A stretch of 64,000 nt of DNA from Fistulifera solaris. Taxonomy: Eukaryota. The translations under genes and the position numbers were made by a program. The stretch is from the NCBI GenBank assembly GCA_030295235.1, contig AP026131.1, forward strand, positions 1-64,000, read 5' to 3'. This document shows positions 1,060-63,370 of the stretch, piece after piece; positions within the stretch are counted from its first letter, which is position 1, and every line of letters begins with the position of its first letter. Below the pieces are notes generated by a model. The model was not told where the DNA came from. It did no database searches and saw only the letters and a program-made list of their open reading frames with translations.

Positions 1060-1670
1060 GTGAAGCCGGATAAACGTTGGTGATTTTAATTCTGTCGGAG
1101 TGGCGAAGATGCCTAGTTCCTGTTTCTGTCTTGCAGTTGCTTTTCACAATAATCAAAACTAATCTTAAAATTGCAACCACATGGAATGTTCTGGTCCGCT
1201 TGCATGTATTGGGTCAATTTGTTCGGAGGGGGGCCTCCAGATGCACGCCATGCTCGATTGCATACTATTGACTGTCCCTTTCGCCCTCAACACAAAACCT
1301 AAAACCTGTCGCCATTGGCTTCATGTGATCTCTAAGCGCATCAAAAGAATCGTGACACCTGATGTTTCTTGTAAGTTGCGCTGACATGATTTTGGATGTT
1401 GAGAATGTTTTGTTGTACATCAGAAAGATTGTCAGCAAGCAAGGCATCACCAGTCGCATTGCTAGGCACAGACATGTCTTCTCCAGTATGCTACAATGGA
1501 ATGACTTATATTAGGTTGGTTGTCATGGTCAGACTCACTGTCATTCCGTGAGTCCTCTTCGCTGCCACCATTCTCCACAGAACAATCGTCAATTTCCATC
1601 TCCATGGTTTTGGATGCAAGTTTTAATGAAGTCAAGCTCTTGCGATTATGAGATTGTGAAACAAACAATA
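1060..1670 (-). pseudogene. Possible decayed Mutator-like (FAR1-type zinc finger) transposase fragment
   Basis: Stitching broken minus-strand frames gives DSFDALRDHMKPMATGFRFCV..CNRA..CGCNFKISF..IKITNV, spaced like a FAR1/MULE N-terminal Zn-binding domain. Several stops and frameshifts. Confidence 0.3.
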
Positions 1671-2391
1671 AAGATTATTCAGCTGCAATGGGTTGCGAAA
1701 GTGTGTGAACATTGATCAATGATCGATACTGGTAGAGCCAAAAACCAATGCTATGGCATGAGCCTATGACAAGTGTGCGTGTCAGGTCCTAAGTTAATGT
1801 TCATATCCATACTGAAGATAAAACATAAAGTCGGCACGCTCGGTCACCTTAGACGTAGGCGCGCGGAAACGCGCGGTGACCCGTGTTTTGCAAGGAGTTT
1901 TGCAATAAGTGTTTTGCAAACAAGGACTCTCCATTTTTCCCACAGTAAAGGTTTTTTCCTTAGAATAAGTTACTAGAGCACTTTAACAGCACGCTGCTTC
2001 AACTACCAATTGTTTTTTGCACAACATAGACCTATTAGCTATTAGAGTATAAATCTGACGACTTTGCTTATGACGTCACCTTTTGGCGCGGCCGACGACC
2101 GACGACCGACCGGCGTTCTTACCCGGTTGGCGGAAAGATCGTAAATCGTATGGCTTACACGTGGAATTTTTTGCGTAATGTTCTTACGGATATACCGGTA
2201 CGACGGATGACGGAAATCGGAAGCGTCCGCGACGCGCGATGATCTTGAAAGATCGTTTGGGTTCGCGCACTCCGTTAACAGAAAAGAAAGAACGACAACA
2301 ACGCGGCCATAATCGATCCAATTGGATATCTTGTATCGCAGTCATTCTTAGCTTCATTTTCGCTTTGTTCGAATTCTTCGAAATAAGAATC

Positions 2392-3166
<775 letters not shown>

Positions 3167-4822
3167 AACACAACAAATTTAAGTCGACTTTAGATAATTG
3201 ATATGACGTTTTACTTTTATGTCTAGCGCAGATTATGTTGATTCAAATAGTTACAGAAAATCTTGGGGTTTTAATGTACTGTGAAAGCGACATCAATGCA
3301 ACCCAAGAAGGTTTTTGGCGCTGACCACAGCACTTAGCTTAGATTACTATTCGTCTCGGTTAATTGCCTCGAGCGCCAAACCTCAGTTTAACTCACGCAT
3401 ACTACTGGACGAATTGTCTTCATCTACCGCAGACGATGCAAGTTGCCGAATAGATAGATTGTCGATCCCGACGACTGAGACGACGATTTTTGTCACTACG
3501 AGTGTAGCCGCTCCTATCGAAACCACGAGAATCACCGCCTTCTTCACTGGAATCAAACAGCAAATTGAAACGGTACGCGAAAGAGCTGTAGGCTTCCGCA
3601 TTCTCCAGCTTGGACATTGTTTCGAAACTTGAGCAGAGCAGGTCGTGGTGAGTGATCGATCAGTCTATTTGACCGCGCGCGCATCAACAGGACTTACATT
3701 TGGTCCCCAACCTTAGCTCTTTCAACGTAATAACAGCAAGTTGTTGATTGGTTTGATCGATGAATGATGACGGACCCTTTGGATTTGAACTTTGCTGAGC
3801 GGCGCGATTCTTGGGCTTCGTCACCAGGGCGTCCAAGTCCTTCTTGCTAAGTAGCGCCACCAATTAAGCAGTTAGCGATCGTTCTCAAACCTTTTAAATC
3901 CCAATAACATAATTGAGAATTCGCGATTGCCTAATGGACATCCCGCACTTGAGTATCTGCACTGTATTGAGCTAGTTGTTGCTTCGAGAATCCTCCTTTC
4001 GACCGAGCCTCACGTGAGATCAATACGCGACCCTCTTTCTATCGTTTCGACACATTGACGTCGACTGATCATTTGATTTAGGGCGACGATATTTATCAAC
4101 GGTTGCTGACGCTCTCGTCATCCAAACAATCGTTACTGTTCCATGTTGGGAGTGAAGACAAGGAAAGGATGTCTTGAAATACTTGCGACGCGACATTCTC
4201 CATTCAACGATACTTTAGCTGCAATCGGCATATCAACATTCCTTTAATGATTGATGACTCTTCTTGGGTATTCATTTTTGTAAGAAGAAAGAAGATGGTT
4301 CACGGAGCTTCGAGCAACGTTGTTATGAGACAAAACGATTCATTCGACAGAGCCGGCGGCGGTCCTTTAGCAGTGCATTACCAAGTAAGTTGTTGTAGAC
4401 CGAGCAAATGTATGCTTCGTTTAACCTAGAGAAACAAATCGTGACTCGTGACTATTCTTCGTTCTTTGTAGCATCAATAGCATTTTTCGTTTTCGTTGAA
4501 TGCGATTACCTTGCACTGCAACACGAGCGCGTTGTCATCTTATTTTTTCGTGTTGCGCATGAGCGTTAACCATCCACCATCCGTCAAGTGCAAGCGAGCA
4601 GATAAGAGGAAATGGCGCGACGGACGGTCTGCCTGTCTGTATGTCGAACCGATCCTGAAGAACAGACGACCAGACCAAAAGACACAAAACACGCAGCAAG
4701 CAGCAAGCAAGCAAAAGCACGCAATAAACGAACAACGAAAGCGAGCTGCCGACAACAAATAATAATGACGAATAAGTCAAGATCGATTTCTACGTTCGTT
4801 CATTGCAATCGGTTTTCTTACA

Positions 4823-6121
4823 ATGGGCGCGCATCAAAGCAGAGATTCTTCCCCTCCTTCTCCGCCCGCCACGGCAGATGACAAGACATGCTCGCCTTGT
4901 TTTTTCTTGGACGGAGTTGCCGAAAGAATACGCTCGAACTCAAAGTCCGATCCAATTGGCTCCCCTCTTCCTGAAACACCAGTCATTCAGAGAAGACGAC
5001 AGCAACAGCAAATAGAGGAAGCTATGAACGATGTTCACAATCTATATGCGTCGCAATATGGGAAACAATCAGAGATCAAAGCCGACGAGGATGACAACGT
5101 CGGCATCCACGAAGGGCCGAACTGCGAAACGGAACTGAACGAAAAGTACGAACTTTTGGAGGCCATGGGTGTGGGATCTACGTCAACGGTTCATAGATGT
5201 GTGCATCGAAGGACGGGAAAAGAGTACGCCTGCAAAATTATCGACTGTGTTCTTATTGAGGAGCGCTTTCAGGGAATGATGAGTCAATTTCAAACTGAAA
5301 TTGAGTCTCTACGAAAGCTCAAACACCCTGGCATCATAGAGCTGTATGATGTGTATCTGGCTGACTCGAAAATATATATAGTCATGGAAATTATGAATGG
5401 CGGTGAGCTTTTCGAATACGTCGTTCAAAAGGGGACGCTCACAGAGGATGAAGCCGCAAAGATTGTTCGAAAAGTCACCAGTGCGCTTGTTTACATGCAC
5501 GACAACAATATTGTTCATCGCGATTTAAAACCGGAAAATCTACTTCTCAAGAGAAAGCCCCAAGGACCAGGTGACGATATTGAAGTCAAAATTATTGACT
5601 TCGGTCTATCAAAGGCCATGGAAGAACCAGTGGCGCAAACGTTCCTGGGCACACGAGGATATCTGGCTCCAGAGATGCTACAGCGGCGAAATTATACAAA
5701 AGCTGTCGATACGTGGGCGTTGGGCATCATTGTTTTTGTTTTGGTTTGTGGATGTTTGCCTTTCGATGATGACTCGGCTACAGTCCCAAGCGATGACTTG
5801 GTTAGAACGAGGTTTGTCTTACGCTTTCCTAGATGGGCTAAAAATTTGAGTAAATCGGCAAAGGATCTTCTATCGCACCTTCTGGATGTGAACCCAGCGA
5901 CGCGATACACAGCAGAGCAAGCGCTGAATCATCCGTGGGTCAAAGGAGAGACCGCAGTTAAGGGCAATCTTCTCGCATCTCCAGGGAAAATTAAGAAGAG
6001 TCCTGCATACACAGGTAGTGCTAAACCTGGAAAATACATACAGGCGGGACGAAGAGTTGTACATCCAGGTGAGAGTCCCCTTTCTCCTGATGTTCAAAGA
6101 GTTCGCAAAAATAGTCTTTAG
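4823..6121 (+). CDS. CaMK-family Ser/Thr protein kinase
   Basis: Intact 432-aa ORF with GVGSTS, ACK, HRDLKPEN, DFG, APE and DTWALG motifs. Confidence 0.93.
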   Translation: MGAHQSRDSSPPSPPATADDKTCSPCFFLDGVAERIRSNSKSDPIGSPLPETPVIQRRRQQQQIEEAMNDVHNLYASQYGKQSEIKADEDDNVGIHEGPNCETELNEKYELLEAMGVGSTSTVHRCVHRRTGKEYACKIIDCVLIEERFQGMMSQFQTEIESLRKLKHPGIIELYDVYLADSKIYIVMEIMNGGELFEYVVQKGTLTEDEAAKIVRKVTSALVYMHDNNIVHRDLKPENLLLKRKPQGPGDDIEVKIIDFGLSKAMEEPVAQTFLGTRGYLAPEMLQRRNYTKAVDTWALGIIVFVLVCGCLPFDDDSATVPSDDLVRTRFVLRFPRWAKNLSKSAKDLLSHLLDVNPATRYTAEQALNHPWVKGETAVKGNLLASPGKIKKSPAYTGSAKPGKYIQAGRRVVHPGESPLSPDVQRVRKNSL

Positions 6122-6595
6122 GGCGGTTTTTGATTCGGAAAATAACTTTTCCGTGACTATAAAGACTCTCTGAACTATATTATTGAACTTTTGATGATGT
6201 AATGTTTGTCTGCGTGCCGTAGTTGTTTGTTTAGGCTTGCGTTCTTGTCTATTTCCAGCACACCAAATGATGCCAGCTTCGGTTCTTTCTACTCTTCTAT
6301 CTATAATATTTTGGATCTGCTACAAGCTATAAGGTAGTGGTTCCGGTACAATTAGCCAGAATGTAGACTTTCCTCTATTTCAATACCGTTCTTTTACAGT
6401 AAATACCATAGCATTCGAAAACAGCAGCTCCCAGGGACTATGCTTTGGGTACTGGGTAGCGCGTAGCGTCTAGAGCGCCTGTCTATAATATTTTACTATA
6501 TTGCCCCGTCTCATTCCTTTTAAGGGGTCATTTTCAAACATTCACACCTGTAACTTTCCTCATTGAAAGCGCCCTGTATTAGAAAGATTAATGAA

Positions 6596-7519
6596 ATGGC
6601 AAAAGTAGTATCTTCCGGAGCTTGGATAGATTCGTTTCCTTATGATACAGACTATTGTGATCACTTCGAAACGCCGCGGCAAGCTTACGATGATATTGCT
6701 CCGATTTTAGACATGTTATTACTGTCCACGCAAAAACCTAGCCGTTCGAAAATAACAATTTATGATCCTTATTTCTGTGATGGCCGCGCTGGAAGAATGC
6801 TTCGTGAACTAGGCTTTCAAGTCCAGCATGATAAAAGGGATTTTTACAAAGATATACAAAACGGCGATGTTCCTCATCATGATATTTTGGTAACGAATCC
6901 GCCCTTTTCCGATCAGCATAAGAAGGTAAATCACATAAGGAAATTGCTGTATTTCTGCCTTGCTAGTCTTACCATCGCTTCTTGGCCATCGTTTTGCAGA
7001 GGTGCCTAGAATTCTGCTTCGAGCAACTCCGAGGCCCGACAAAGCGCCCATTTGCGATACTCATGCCCAACTACGTCGCAGCGCGAGAGTATTACAAGAA
7101 GCTTCTTACACAGCAGAGTAATAGAGAAGATGTCGTTTATTTCATTCCGACGACAACGTATCATTATGACCATCCCGATGGAACGGGTAAAGACACTCCG
7201 CCGTTTGAGAGTCTGTGGTTCATTGGTGTCAACATAAACAGAGATTGGAATAAAAGTTTTTCTCGTGGGAAAATAGCGGAAACACTGAAGGCTTTATCGA
7301 CTTCGAGCGATTCATTCAAAAGGATTTTCCAAAAGCGACCCAATCCAAAAGCAACGAAAGAAAAAGGGCAAGAAAAGAGCAATTGAGCTCGGAACGAACA
7401 CAATAATAGATGTGACTAATCCCCAACCCGTAGAACCCTCACAAACCGATTCCAATCCAAATCGAAAGAAAAGCAAGTATCGCGATGCGTTTGGTGTGAG
7501 GAAACAAGGCCGATTTTGA
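6596..7519 (+). CDS. Putative amino (N6-adenine-type) methyltransferase, NPPF motif; intron 6926-6999, probable 1-bp error near 7350
   Basis: Motifs DHFETP, IYDPYFCDG, DFY and ILVTNPPFS. GT-AG splicing joins the two ORFs in frame. Basic C-terminal tail ends ..RKQGRF* at 7519. Confidence 0.7.
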
Positions 7520-16809: not shown

Positions 16810-17710
16810 TGGAGTTCTCGCGTGGTGGGAGTGGGAGACGAGACGATGACGAATGACGACTGATGTCGATGGTGATAAACTGATAATGTCGAACGGTCTG
16901 CTCCTAGGTGTTCCAGCGAAAAAGGTTCGTGTCAACCAGTCAACCACATGTTAAAGACTAAAGACAAATCGTAAATAATATGCAAATCTGCCATCTGTCA
17001 TCGTCACAATAACGTATGTAATCGTAGTTTTTGGCTGGGTTGGACATTTTTGTTTCCCGGAAACCACACAGAATGGCACCAGACAATTCCGGACTGCCTA
17101 CCTTACATTCACTATCGAATGGGGCTATTGTGTTGTGAGTCTGGGAGAATTTGAGTCGTATCTCTCATCTTTCTGTACGCAACAAAGCAGCATCTCGCTG
17201 AACGCTGAACGCTTGACGCTTGACGCTAGATCGTTAATCATCGTTGATGTTTTGGATGTACTCTATACTCTATTACAAGGTATTGTGCCAAATCTCCCGA
17301 ATGTTCCTCAATGATTCTGAGTACATTATAGTTACTAGTCTTTGTTATCCGTAATGTTGAAGGTTTATGGATCGTTTCAAATTTCAAATTTCAAAACTAG
17401 GACTCGAATCAAAGCTCAAAGCTCAAAGCTCAAGGCTCTTTTCTCCCGCCTGCCAGGCGGCCGCCTGCCTAACAATCAGTGAAGAGTAATAAGTCCCAAG
17501 TCCAATCATCAAAAATTACAATTACAGATTTACAGTGAAAAGGATGTCCTTTAGTTTGGTGTTTGGTGTTTCGTTTAAGTACACAGTTTATTGTTTATTA
17601 TGAGCTAAAGGCTAAACGGTAGAGAAAGTTTCTCGACGATACTTTATTATATTCACTTTTTCTGTAGAACCTCACAGTAAGTGTCAGGTGTCAATGCTAA
17701 ATGCCCAACG
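16810..17710. repeat. Intergenic tract of many unrelated 5-8-nt (mostly 7-nt) tandem duplications
   Basis: cgctgaa x2, cgcttga x2, tttcaaa x3, aaagctc x3, gtttggt x2, gtttatt x2, taaagac x2, gtcaacca x2. Confidence 0.8.
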
Positions 17711-18057
17711 CCAGACTTAGGAAAGTACGAAAAAGTACATCAGAGAAAAAAATAAAGACGGGGTCATTCGCCAATAGAGATAAGATCGCAGTTCTCGTCG
17801 GTAATGTCCACGGAACAAAGAGAAATTAGCCTACTTCCTTATCAATAGCTGATTGCTTTTTGCTTTTAGCCAGTCTACATCGGCTTCTCGCTCTCAACAC
17901 CCCGAGCTCGAAAAACAATCGAGAAGACGAGCGCGCATACGAACCGCAATACTGGAGTCGATCAAAACCCCCCTGAATTATCTCATAAACAGCAGATTAT
18001 TCTCTTCGAAACCACCGCAACCATTGAAGAATCTAATTTGCCACCAAAGACGCATAC

Positions 18058-32637: not shown

Positions 32638-34091
32638 TCATGGCGTTAGTTGATCATGTTCCGTCATTACATCATTTAGCCCCAAAGCTTCATTCTCTGC
32701 GTGACTGCGCTCGTATTCTTCCAGGAAAAGGTTTTCGTCTCGCATTGCTCTCTCATTTACTGATACATCCGAATTGCCGGATCGACGGCCCACAAAAGAG
32801 TTGGAGAGTGGATCCGTCAATATGATCTGAAAAGGAAAATGTTGCCCACTTATCATTGCTTTCATTTTGTTCAAAAAGTCATTGAAGCGGTATGATAACT
32901 CGCCTTCTTGTCTAACTTTGCCGCCCGTCCTTCCAATGGTGGAATCGCCCATCGCAAACGGATTGGTAGTCTCTAAATGTCCCACTATCTGGGTCAAAAT
33001 ACCTTCAACTGTCGAATAGACTCCTCCGAGACTACACCCTCCGACTTCCAAATCAGCTTCCGGTATGAAAATTGTGGCTGTCGTGCTTGTTAGCACATCA
33101 CGGGACAAATCAACCATGTCGGTGACATTCAATGTGATACGAGTTCCGCGCTCCGAAATGGCTCCACCGTTTCCTTGAACATCATTACTACGGTAGCCAC
33201 AATTGGAACAAAGCATGCACATGAGAATCACCGATTGAAAGTGGGGGATACTTGTCGTGCACATGTTTGTTTCCGTGGGGCATCGACAGCTTGGACACGT
33301 GGTAGGGAAACTCATAATTTCGTCTTTAGGAACACATTTCTCGGTCGGCTCAAATCTTTCATCCTCGCAAGCGTGTATCTTGTAGCGAAGAGCTTTTGAA
33401 TCGGTGTGCTCGGTGTTTTTTCCGTATCGAAAGACGGTTGAAGACCCAGGACTGCATCTTGCTGAGGAGTCCGGCGGTACGGTGTATGTGTAAGTTGAGG
33501 ATCTCGCTTTGGAGCTTGAAAGTTCTCAATGTAAGAATTCCCTGCTGGATCATCGAGAATGACCTCAAAGGGAAAATCGGAAGAATTATCGATTCCAGGG
33601 GTCTCGTTCTCGGATTTGATTTCCGCGTTATTTATCCACCGGTTTATTGTGTCAATGACTGCACGGCAGCGATGAAAATTGTCTACGTCCCCTGATCGCA
33701 ATCGTTCTGCCTGCTGTTGAGTGAGTTGATTGACTGTCGTTTGTAAAATGCCCTCCAACGTTGATATTTTCCCTTGCTGTGTCGAACGAGGAATTTCTAA
33801 GTCGAGCGTTTGAAAGAAAAGGGTCGCCGAATCGGATTTAACAATTTGGCGATTCAAATCCTCGGAACAGCGAACAGTTAGTGTAATTCGCTGCCCTTCA
33901 TCTTGAATTGACCCACCAAAAGATACTTGAGCGTCGCGATTGCCGCAGACTTCGCAGTAAAGGTTCATGATGATAAGTTCACGGAAATAGGGAATCTTCG
34001 TTAAAAGTAAAGTTGTCGTAGCCTTATCGCCTTGACAAGCCGGACAATAGCAATCCTTAACGACAGTTGTTTCACATTCCTCATGGCTCAT
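32638..34091 (-). CDS. ZPR1: Zinc finger protein ZPR1; frameshift near 33320-33420
   Basis: Two ZPR1 modules: CPAC..TKIPYFRE..CEVCG..DLNRQIVKSD..DDPAGNSYIE and CPSC..IPHFQSVILM..CSNCGY..DPLSNSFV. Confidence 0.93.
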
Positions 34092-34779
34092 TGTAGATTG
34101 CGGTAACGTTATGCATCCTTGTTCATTGTTTTTGTGATGGTTGTGTCCTCGTCGACAAACACAACGAGAGATTTCTGCGGGGATAGTAGTGCGACACACG
34201 GTGTGAATCATATCAATTGGAGTCCCGGAAAAATAGGATTTGCATTTTTCCTACAAAGAAAAACAATAAAGCTTTTGTCGACCGATTTCTTGACAAGAAA
34301 TAAGCAACTATTTTGTGCTAGCTGGTGTGAAACAAGGTTACACAGACTGCGTCGCCCTTTTGAGTCGATCACAATGGCGGAAAAAAAATTAACGGATGCA
34401 TTCACTCTTTGTTTGCTATTGTCTCTGTAATTCCACCACCAACTATCTCACAAGCATCATTGGATATCTCCAGTGTTTATTCCAAGAATTAGACTCTCTG
34501 TCGAAAGTGATTACTGTCCCGCATAGCTATAAAGGAAGGGTCCCAAGTTTGTGTCATTAGAAGGAATCGGTTTGATTATCAAGTAAATGATACGGTTTAG
34601 CGGTTTACTCGTCAAACATCGAAGCACTCCTTAACCAGTACTTTATTAGCTAAGCCGGGGTAGGGATTCTCTATTCTCTAGCTAGAGGGAGAACTCTGGC
34701 TGCTCTAGAACCGCCAACTTAACTAATTTCCTCTTGCCGCCAAGGTCGGCTTTTGAGTTGTCCTTCTTCTTGTAGCCGA

Positions 34780-35780
34780 TGTGACATGTGACTACCAGGT
34801 ATGACCTATGACTATGACAGGGTGACAGGGACGACCATCGACCATCGACCATCCGTTGCTGAGTTGGGTGCTGGGTGCTGGCGAACGGCGAACTGGCCAA
34901 TAAAGCCAAAAACCGAACGCGGCACTGCCAACGTCAGAAGTACTTTTATGTATCGAAAGCTATTGCGGAAAATCTTTAGGCCTTAAAGCTTTTGTTATTT
35001 GGTTATTTGTTACAAAATGGAAATCGCAAACCGCAGTTCGCAGTTAACATTGGACACTGGACGCTAGACTACCTTGTAGCTGGTAGACACTGGTGACTGG
35101 AGATTGGAGATGATTCAGTGCTAACTAACAACTAACGTAGACGTAAACAGTAAAAAGTAAAAAAGTAGACAGTAGACCATACACCGTAAACCGTAAACCG
35201 TACACCTATGGCCTATGGCCTATGGCTGTGGCCTATTGTTGATGGTTGATGGTTCATAGTTCATAGATGGTTGATGGTTATTAGTTATTACTTATTACTA
35301 CGTAGTTATTAGTTGTCAGTTTTCAGTTCTCAGTTCTCAGTGGAGTGTGAAGTTGAAGAAAATAGAACGTTATCGACTGGCTTCTTGTTACTTGTTTCTT
35401 GCTGCTGTAGTATGTAGTACTTGCTTCCATAAGTCCATAAAATTCAGACGAATGCTATTCTTGCTATTCGATATTCGATATTAGATTTTTAAAAAACAAA
35501 ACACAATAGGAGTAAACAATAGTCTGGTCTGGTCTGGTCTGAGGATTGAGGATTGAGGATTGAGGATTAAGGTATACTGTCTACTCTAGACCGTGATCCT
35601 CTCTCTTTTCTTGCGAATTCTTAGTTCGTACTGTTTATTCCTGACTCCTGACTCCTAACTAGCATCGAACTTCCATAGCCTTGGCCTTTGGCCTTAATGC
35701 TTTGTTTATGCCCCTCTTTTACGACTAGGATCCTATAAAGTTGGATCAGCCGAGCAGCCGAGCCAATAGCCAATATTTAT
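34780..35780. repeat. Dense tract of unrelated ~7-nt tandem duplications
   Basis: ccatcga x2+, gggtgct x2, ggcgaac x2, cgcagtt x2, accgtaa x2+, cctatgg x3, ttgatgg x2, ttcatag x2, attcgat x2, gaggatt x4, gccaata x2. Confidence 0.85.
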
Positions 35781-36098
35781 GGTTTGGTCACTGGCATCAT
35801 TGCGTGTTCAAAGGCTTATTCGTTCTGTGAAGATTGAAGATAGTGCCCAATGAGATAAATCATAAATCGTATTCCTTCTTATAACAAATAAAACCAATCC
35901 AGCACAGCCAGCGGAAGCCTTCTATACTTCCTAGTGCATACTGTGTGCAAATGACACGTACAAAATACATATCACAAAGCGTGCAGTTCGCGCAAAGTGA
36001 TTTTGATCGGTATTCTCTCTTTCCCGAAAGCGAACAATCAAAAATTGATGCATTTGCGCAACGCTTCACATATTATTATAAACTGAAAAGTCAGCAAC

Positions 36099-36913
36099 AT
36101 GGATATCGCGTATCGTTTTCACGAAACAGGCGTCAAGCTTTACCAAGAAGGTCGCGGCTCGGAAGCGTTTGATCTGTTTTATGCGTCAATCGAAGTTCAA
36201 TTGCTGAGCCAAGGCAAGATGATGATGTCGCGTGATTCAACACAATGCCAATATCTTGCTTTCCATAATTCTATCGCTCAAGACCTCAAAGTAGACTCAT
36301 ATGAACGAAGTTACCCGCCAGTGAGCTTGCAGGCGCCTGAATTTCTTTTCCCGGAAGCCTGCTCTTTTGAACAGGTCAGACAAATGTGCACGACAACCGA
36401 TGGTCCCTCCCGTCAACACAGTCCACCAAGTCATCAAAGATTTGCCAAAACCGAAGATCCGTACATTTTTGAAAGAATTTTCCGCTGGAGAGCTTCTGAA
36501 TGTCCCCGCTATGAACAATTTGTCGTGTACCTCGCAATTGATTTCTTCAATATGGCCTTGATACTCCAAAAAGGGTTCATGAATCACAAAATGAGTCGCT
36601 GCCTCGAACGGGCGATGGTTCTGTACAATTATGCAGGTGAATTATTATGGAGGAATTTAGGCATGGCCTTAGTTCGCTCTTGTCCTTGGGGTGTCTCGCT
36701 TTCTACTTTATACTGTGCTGTGCTCAACAATACCGGATACTTAATGCATCAAATGGGCCAATTTGACTGGTCAGAGCTCTTTACTATCGCTTGCATGGAG
36801 CACTCGAAGTGCTCGAGCCAGCGGAGAGTTTGGAGGAGCAGAGCGATCGGGATGCTTTGCAACTCAATGTAATCGTACGGTTTGGCGCCTGCACTGCCGC
36901 CGGCTCGGCCTAA
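36099..36913 (+). CDS. Hypothetical TPR-like helical protein
   Basis: 257-aa ORF with FFNMALI..RAMVLY..A and AVLNNTG helices. The end is probably shifted by an indel near 36780. Confidence 0.6.
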
Positions 36914-62384: not shown

Positions 62385-63370
62385 ACGTCCACAGAAAATG
62401 TAGGCGAGTGGTATTTTCACGTCTCCAGAAAATGTGGGGGAGTGCTGTTTTCACTTGTCCAGAATCCAGAAAATGTGGGCGAGTTGTATTTTTAAGTGTC
62501 CGAAAATCTGGGGGTGTGTAAAATTCACGTTTCCAGAAAATGTGGGCGTGTGCTGTTTTCACGTGCCCCGAAAATCTGGGCGAGTGCAAATTTCACGTCC
62601 CCCGAAAATCTGGGGGTGTGCTGTTTTCACGTGTCTCGAAAATCTGGGCGAGTGCTGTTTTTACGTCTCCCGAAAATCTGGGCGGGTTCTGTTTTCACGT
62701 TTCCAGAAAATCTGGGTGATTTCAAATTTTTAACGTGCCCCGAAAATCAGGGCGAGTGCAAATTTCACGTGTCCCGAAAATCTGGGCGAGTGCAAATTTC
62801 ACGTGTCCCGAAAATCTGGGCGGGTGCTGTTTTTCAAGTCTCCAAAAAATCTGGGCGAGTGCAAATTTCACTCGTCCCGAAAATCTTTGGGGTGTGCAAA
62901 TTTCACGTCTCCCGAAAATCTGGGGGTGTGCAAATTTCACTTGTCCCGAAAAATCTGGGGGTGTGCAAACTTCACGTGTCCCGAAAATCAGGGCGTGTGC
63001 AAATTTCACTTGTCCCGAAAATCTTGGGGTGTGCAAATTTCACGTCTCCCGAAAATCTGTGAGTGTGCAAATTTCACTTGTCCCGATAATCTGGGCGTGT
63101 GCAAATTCACGTGTCCCGAAAATCTGGGCGAGTGCTTTAGGTGCAAATTTCACTTGTCCCGAAAATCTGGGCGTGTGCTAGACATTTAGACCAATACAAG
63201 TACGGTGCGCAACGCAACGCTGCATCTTTGCACTGGAAAAGCTCGCGTCACACCGTTCATTTTTTTTTATAAAAAATAAACTTTTACGCCTCACAGGCGC
63301 CGCCAACAATTTCACGTTTCCAGAAAATGTGAGAGTGTGGAATTTTCACGTGTCCAGAAATGTGGGGGTC
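62385..63370. repeat. 34-bp minisatellite, consensus GTGCAAATTTCACGTGTCCCGAAAATCTGGGCGA; ~23 units to 63180 plus ~2 diverged units at 63305-63370
   Basis: Direct head-to-tail repeats visible throughout, with no unique spacers. Confidence 0.95.

Follow-up and report, generated by a model that had tools for sequence, protein, structure and literature searches.

The spacer between a ZPR1 zinc-finger gene and a nameless gene, within a 64,000-nt window that forms the telomeric end of contig C9 in the 51.7-Mb genome of Fistulifera solaris, carries a dense field of tandemly doubled 7-nt words. We consider it likely that this stretch is a landing pad of repeated cut-and-paste insertion and excision, and that the doubled 7-mers are +7 excision footprints of hAT elements. 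The hAT attribution rests on genome-wide tests; the local signal in the patch is weak. Silicon transporters are present in the genome, and contig C10 is colinear with the window in aligned blocks that are mostly 80–91% identical; we infer a diatom genome with two subgenomes. The features referred to below are the following.

16846..17866, no strand: second, weaker field with 10 doublets.
32638..34211, minus strand: ZPR1 zinc-finger gene, two overlapping ORFs, each with Zn_ribbon_ZPR1 and jr-ZPR1; left neighbor, 5' end towards the field.
34666..35868 (about 1.2 kb), no strand: field of tandem 7-nt doublets with a single cluster of 26 perfect ones; its spacer is divergent and separates ZPR1 from the nameless gene.
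34711..34743, plus strand: P-like excision footprint, 7-bp direct repeats (34711–34717 and 34737–34743) around a 19-bp remnant.
34793..34801, no strand: TA-N5-TA word, probably left as a +7 footprint by a TA-targeting (Tc1/mariner-like) element.
35070..35078, no strand: TA-N5-TA word, probably of the same origin as the one at 34793.
35143..35341, no strand: densest core, in-phase arrays with units drifting by single substitutions.
35180..35188, no strand: TA-N5-TA word, again probably of the same origin as the one at 34793.
35296..35304, no strand: TA-N5-TA word that also occurs as two insertions within a hAT MITE copy (L258).
36099..36872, plus strand: 257-aa ORF, without Pfam hits and conserved on the sister contig; right neighbor, 5' end towards the field.

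Compared with 1000 dinucleotide shuffles, the stretch at 34780–35780 had a lag-7 identity of 0.508 versus 0.257 ± 0.014 (maximum 0.305; z = 18), with 0.59–0.70 per 100 bp in the core at 35000–35400, and it held 22 perfect primitive 7-mer doublets versus a shuffle mean of 0.054 (maximum 1). Identity was 0.376 at lag 14 and 0.303 at lag 21, and did not exceed 0.30 at any lag from 1 to 30 that is not a multiple of 7. Doublets of 5-mers, 6-mers and 8-mers numbered 2, 1 and 4, respectively, and units of 9–19 nt gave none. These results uphold the initial annotation of this DNA in its claims of a lag-7 excess over shuffled controls and of a unit length of mostly 7, and all 13 words that it listed are rotations of doublets that we detected. 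Its statement that almost every segment is duplicated was too strong, since 1220 bp hold 30 exact and 49 near-exact (6 of 7) collapsible units, although this is well above the 1.3 near-exact units in shuffles. The words were described as unrelated, but the adjoining words at 35238–35341 form a drifting in-phase family; likewise, the extent given as ~1 kb at 34780..35780 falls short of a field that runs from about 34666 to 35868. No Rfam family or tRNA was found in the field.

The sister spacer of the patch has its own weaker field, made of other words, and collapsing the doublets regained an alignment to this spacer over only ~130 bp beside the right-hand gene. The C10 counterpart of the second field (16846..17866) has two clusters with 13 doublets in all, together with two copies of the TATAG family of hAT MITEs. 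A ZPR1 scan of metagenomes for an outgroup of the locus found nothing. We also noted that the split of ZPR1 across two overlapping ORFs reflects either an intron or an assembly frameshift.

The process is not confined to this locus: the doublets turned out to be a genome-wide class, of which the patch is a dense example, with an excess in other diatoms too. The comparison covered C9 and C10 (280 kb of each), C15 and C16 (100 kb of each) and ten dispersed stretches of 10 kb, a non-random sample of ~1.7% of the genome. There were 516 7-mer doublets in 857 kb, or about 60 per 100 kb, which extrapolates from this non-random sample to roughly 28,000 in the genome. Outside long ORFs, their density was 171 and 151 per 100 kb, versus 8 and 11 (near chance) inside, and they were clustered (chi-square 244 on 64 df). 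Convergent, tandem and divergent spacers held 0.75, 1.74 and 2.52 doublets per kb, respectively, with densities rising away from genes and no link between doublet orientation and the direction of transcription (62 versus 56). An early idea that doublets form at promoter bubbles drew on a first annotation that hinted at their near absence from convergent spacers; given the density there under the better annotation and the lack of a strand link, it was abandoned.

Between the subgenomes, only 5 of 37 C9 doublets in aligned DNA had a C10 doublet within 10 bp and two were the same doublet by eye, yet spacer doublet densities correlated (Spearman 0.33, n = 101, p = 0.0007), which argues that the positions are old and the events recent. 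Clean non-ORF indels between the subgenomes peaked at length 7, with 43 cases including 9 perfect tandem duplications, versus 30 (1), 30 (3) and 17 (1) for lengths 5, 6 and 8. To look beyond Fistulifera, we took the 30 of 80 metagenome loci that were at least 2.8 kb long and merged redundant ones into 20 contigs, all diatom, with a quick SIT tree that served only to show lineage spread. Their non-ORF DNA held 57 7-mer doublets versus 6.0 expected, a larger excess than for 6-mers (49 versus 23), and 10 of the 20 contigs reached p < 0.01 for 7-mer doublets.

The lengths of the repeated runs bear on how the duplications are made. Among 469 doublets, runs of 7, 8, 9 and 10 numbered 220, 104, 56 and 34, close to the 223, 121, 52 and 23 of a microhomology-free duplication. 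Random 7-nt duplication simulated at 0.2–0.3 events per substitution reproduced the patch, whereas simulations needing 2–3 bases of microhomology gave 1.7–3.5 short runs at comparable lag-7 levels, against 13 seen. The initial inference that a length-specific process other than slippage acted repeatedly therefore stands. Like heptanucleotide slippage microsatellites, the patch class has a period of 7, 2–4 copies and some in-phase arrays, but it comprises 286 distinct units among 389 doublets and forms without prior microhomology. Runs of 10–11 numbered 34 and 16, a little more than the 23 and 13 expected without microhomology, so slippage may extend some arrays. As for a sequencing or assembly artefact, contigs from three low-share runs cover the flanking genes and include short chance pieces in the patch, and none of them reaches across it. 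However, depletion from ORFs (8–11 versus 151–171 per 100 kb), the presence of decayed copies, differences between the subgenomes, occurrence in unrelated metagenome assemblies, the transposon signature described below and the failure of the slippage simulations all speak against slippage or an artefact as the maker of the doublets, to which we assign next to no probability.

Next, we investigated which transposons might account for the doublets. Scanning for inverted repeats bounded by duplications recovered five MITE families with 8-bp duplications; at least five such families are thus resident, and the resident hAT elements have short TIRs. Fetched copies of the TATAG family had exact 8-bp duplications in 18 of 26 cases (two of them the same site), one mismatch in 1 and no recognizable duplication in 7; overall, resident MITE copies were 80–98% identical to the query. 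The longest TAGAC-family copy encodes a hAT dimerisation domain. Remnants of hAT transposase are resident, with only three matches, none demonstrably intact, and the copy on C8 is spread over five ORF pieces (introns or frameshifts). These few, possibly broken matches leave the source of the enzyme unproven; a conservative element can, however, leave many scars yet stay rare, hence their small number does not refute the hAT reading.

The doublet units carry a motif. In the 220 unambiguous doublets it consists of T at unit position 2 or A at position 6, with both present in 22 versus 32 expected, and GT is seen at positions 0–1 as well as 1–2. That T2 and A6 rarely occur together, and that GT takes two positions, suggests an 8-bp site read in two registers. 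The cross-validated gain over matched controls was 43 for a 7-bp symmetric, 40 for a 9-bp symmetric and 48 for a 7-bp one-sided model, compared with 61 for an 8-bp symmetric two-register model and 65–68 for three one-sided models, two of which are two-register. We collected 30 hAT target sites and omitted one with a mis-set boundary from the motif comparison; the hAT target motif is R T Y A T R A Y. A de novo 8-bp symmetric motif from 277 unambiguous doublets agreed in its log-odds with the motif of the remaining 29 target duplications (r = 0.92, p = 4e-7, 16 cells). Furthermore, a matrix from the 19 hAT sites without doublet overlap, including one site with a mis-set boundary, gave the 277 doublets higher scores than matched controls at offsets 0/1 (p = 2e-14), in statistical support of two registers of the 8-bp target; the remaining three offset pairs gave p = 1.0, 0.049 and 1.0. 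The half-site inside the unit was more enriched than the half-site that straddles it, and neither the +6 nor the +8 class showed a significant hAT signal.

When elements were removed in silico, 8 of the 30 hAT sites shared the register of a doublet (null 4.1%, p = 2e-5), as did 8 of the 11 sites that overlap one (null 34%, p = 0.01), which demonstrates in-register reuse. Flanking DNA held 6.65 doublets per kb around TATAG and 3.3 around TAGAC elements, versus 2.3 around Harbinger and 1.9 around mariner elements. In counts, TATAG flanks had 69 doublets in 10.4 kb versus 27 in 11.6 kb for Harbinger plus 5 in 2.6 kb for mariner (p = 1e-7), and beyond 50 bp they still had 41 in 7.8 kb versus 14 in 8.7 kb. 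We estimated the hAT share of doublets at 0.66 by moments and at 0.8–1.0 by likelihood outside the densest clusters, with a drop to 0.48 within these. Seven of eight perfect 7-nt duplications that differ between the subgenomes had a positive hAT score. In other diatoms, the hAT signature was present in 37 unambiguous doublets (p = 0.002); in 73 doublets of all run lengths the test gave p = 0.16.

Other elements were rejected as the source. A MULE 9-bp model had one borderline match, and the symmetric 9-bp model fits poorly, as given above. An 83-bp hairpin MITE and a 7-kb TIR element make 3-bp CNG duplications and are Harbinger-like, an LTR element has a 6-bp duplication, and the CAGCTG element, at first taken for one with 7-bp target duplications, is TA-flanked.

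We also considered that host nicking and repair make microhomology-free 7-nt duplications in open spacers, and that hAT elements merely share these sites and a weak R-T-Y preference. The excess across many diatom lineages (57 versus 6 in 20 contigs) and the hotspot spacers common to both subgenomes would fit such a process, as would the one-sided models, which do equally well or slightly better than the symmetric one (65–68 versus 61), and the lack of a significant hAT score for the focal doublets. It would, however, require that two independent processes share one 8-position motif and its phase, and the flanks of Harbinger and mariner elements, which are also intergenic, lack the enrichment seen around TATAG elements. 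The doublets show no orientation to transcription either (62 versus 56), and a UV-damage endonuclease, a candidate cause that we dropped, had no match. We regard such a host process as improbable.

Within the patch itself, the 21 scorable doublets did not score above the null with the hAT matrix (p = 0.28–0.42) and scored lower than the genome-wide set (p = 0.04). In simulated dense patches, the patch mean fell inside the range of both models, at the 10th percentile of a hAT model and at the 70th of a random one; only one of eight statistics favored hAT. A search of the patch with 10 terminal patterns found no hAT ends, the only match being one of 11 bp (E = 0.11). No pair of a filled allele and a footprint allele was seen; two element sites were checked against the sister contig, and neither aligned cleanly.

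The local evidence of transposon traffic from other elements is stronger than that for hAT, and three kinds of scar occur within one kilobase. At the patch edge, the 19-bp remnant in the footprint at 34711–34743 ends in 13 bases identical to the terminal inverted repeat of a resident MITE family, which makes 7-bp target duplications and has CA-initial inverted repeats. This P-like family (L202, L203, L204) is small, and a second scar of the same build lies at G000:C3:2539256. P elements leave end remnants on excision, and both footprints retain element ends. A test for a P-type transposase with PF21787, a weak one, matched nothing here nor in the controls.

The patch also contains four TAC-N3-GTA words versus 0.3 expected; in non-ORF DNA there were 301 versus 58 expected, a five-fold excess. 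Of the 27 clean 7-nt indels that distinguish C9 from C10, 8 consist of such words, which also occur as insertions within MITE copies. Four TA-N5-TA words dominate, with 84, 58, 36 and 35 copies in 297 kb, and no parent element was found in the sampled DNA. From their form, which we take to be like that of Tc1/mariner footprints, the TA-N5-TA words are probably scars of such elements.

Excision of P-like elements offers a further account of the doublets, in which clean excision of elements with 7-bp target duplications makes most of them. The family is indeed resident, with two full copies that have exact 7-bp duplications, and its footprint lies at the patch edge; the P-superfamily element 1360 likewise has 7-bp duplications (PMC3276498, accessible parts). 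Nevertheless, both identified scars retain 15–19 bp of the element ends, unlike the doublets, and the target sites differ from the doublet motif: the four P-like sites are G+C-rich (4–6 of 7), whereas doublet units peak at 3 of 7. The 7-bp symmetric motif also fits worse than the 8-bp offset models, only six terminal matches were found genome-wide, and CA..TG spacers flanked by 7-bp repeats hardly exceed chance (23 versus 16). A predominantly P-like origin is thus very doubtful. Of the sources put forward initially, transposon footprints are supported, but a transposon with 7-bp target duplications as the main one is not, because the signature is that of an 8-bp hAT site minus one base.

How, then, might hAT excision yield +7? 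A hAT element would insert at an 8-bp target ABCDEFGH and duplicate it, as shown for the resident MITEs. Excision of hAT elements first nicks one base into each flank, and excision here would start with those nicks. The host would rejoin the flanks with one junction base kept, to give ABCDEFG-ABCDEFGH or ABCDEFGH-BCDEFGH, both of which are perfect 7-mer doublets. Such an outcome could arise if the hairpin opening fell on the opposite side of the tip base, so that each flank kept a 1-nt 5' overhang, and if the overhangs were then ligated as a single mismatch, or one were filled and the other trimmed. Because the footprint would retain the whole target site, it could be hit again in phase, and triplets and drifting arrays would result. 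New elements would prefer such spacers, with DNA here growing by about one 7-nt event per 3–5 substitutions in our simulation, and P-like and TA-targeting elements would have left their own scars within the same kilobase. Most likely, the resulting spacer DNA is neutral.

A hAT-type transposase might instead cut without an element staying, either by abortive or reversed integration or as a domesticated hAT-derived nuclease, with repair leaving +7. The motif and register evidence fits this equally well, roughly 28,000 extrapolated doublets stand against few transposase matches, and the 80–98% identity of MITE copies to the query implies that many have long been immobile. Filling in a plain 8-nt staggered cut, however, yields +8, but lag-8 doublets occur only about one-tenth as often as lag-7 doublets (56 versus 508 in 343 kb of non-ORF DNA), and the loss of one base follows naturally from hAT excision chemistry. 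Cutting without a resident element therefore seems unlikely to us.

The +7 hAT footprint proposed here can be set beside known systems, as described in the accessible parts of the papers cited. The target duplication of hobo is 8 bp and of the nTnnnnAn type, GTNCGNAC / NTNNNNAN (PMC3276498). hAT transposases form flank hairpins that host enzymes open and join (PMC5499845), and Ds in Candida leaves two predominant footprints that differ at one junction base (PMC5873905). In Candida, budding yeast, plants and human cells, the base at the center of a footprint is complementary to the one that adjoined the element (P-nucleotides; PMC5873905, PMC3499496, PMC1978519). The doublets resemble the footprints of Ac/Ds, hobo/Hermes and TcBuster in the 8-bp target duplication with an nTnnnnAn-type motif, in end-joining repair of the donor site and in having two main forms that differ at one junction base. 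They differ in that the junction base is the original base and not its complement, so that the doublet is perfect, and in scale, with tens of thousands per diatom genome and local saturation. A complementary junction base occurred in 108 of 208 cases versus 103 expected, and in 29 of 68 versus 29 in patches; we therefore regard this class as absent and rejected classic hairpin P-nucleotide footprints. Complementarity of positions 1/8 (71 of 212 versus 34%) and double-complement +8 forms (5 of 30) gave no sign of it either. Collectively, the element, the target length and the motif place the doublets with hAT footprints while the junction base does not, which makes them a variant and not a plain member of that class.

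In rice, excision shapes intergenic and promoter DNA, and a 'perfect excision' leaves a doubled target site (PMC4423477, PMC5023962). Clean doublets made up 8 of 94 excisions there (PMC4423477), and hAT events 1 of 158 (PMC5023962); unlike in rice, where clean doublets are rare in the accounts available, a single stereotyped +7 product dominates in the diatom. Our literature search, largely confined to main texts outside subscription journals, found no account of 7-nt doublet fields in diatoms, nor do the accessible parts of the Fistulifera assembly preprint (10.1101/2021.11.10.468027) and of PMC12477816 mention them.

A broader proposal, which we put forward tentatively and at somewhat less than even odds, is that diatoms mend hAT breaks unlike plants, yeasts and human cells, with a perfect +7 doublet as the product, and that a real share of their intergenic DNA consists of tens of thousands of such scars, accumulated over time at landing pads that both subgenomes, and probably diatoms in general, have retained. 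Excision footprints are usually varied and hard to recognize, which keeps past cut-and-paste transposition from being counted; with a stereotyped perfect +7 scar a count would become possible, genome- and diatom-wide, as a record of transposition far beyond the few surviving elements. Much spacer DNA of this alga would then be built from excision scars, which would account for long spacers of the two subgenomes no longer aligning, and upstream spacer DNA could arise largely from visiting transposons. An unusual opening and joining of transposase-made ends in diatoms would also be relevant to transposon tagging and genome editing.

Several other repeats were seen in the genome. The 83-bp hairpin MITE occurs at C10:44426-44508 (L007:4426-4508) and in at least 40 other places, with 3-bp CNG duplications and often in GTAC-CNG-GTAC-like sites, and is Harbinger/Tourist-like. 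A 7.2-kb element at C10:8350-15508, not in C9, has ~170-bp inverted repeats, a 3-bp duplication, a Harbinger-like transposase ORF (by eye) and 14 7-mer doublets. A dispersed 79-bp repeat (C10:44540-44618 and 217479-217557) matches by eye the 'centromere/ARS' motif in the accessible part of 10.1101/2021.11.10.468027; since it adjoins a MITE inside an insertion, it may be transposon-derived. A second dispersed intergenic family of ~80 bp with a conserved core lies at C9:96732-96932, 120570-121510, 171338 and 188411, with further sites at C10:95525 and 135680 and at L014:5796. Two copies of an LTR retrotransposon, 97% identical, occupy C10:243720-249177 and 1332-6718, one with a 6-bp target duplication. 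The small contig C51 (L074 / L078; G000:C51, C20) repeats the end of C20 at 99.5%, and there are also sites common to C52 and C24 and to C54 and C18; some of the small contigs may therefore be redundant. Lastly, a 34-bp satellite of ~22 copies spans 62394–63180 of the window and is also found on C10 and C2.
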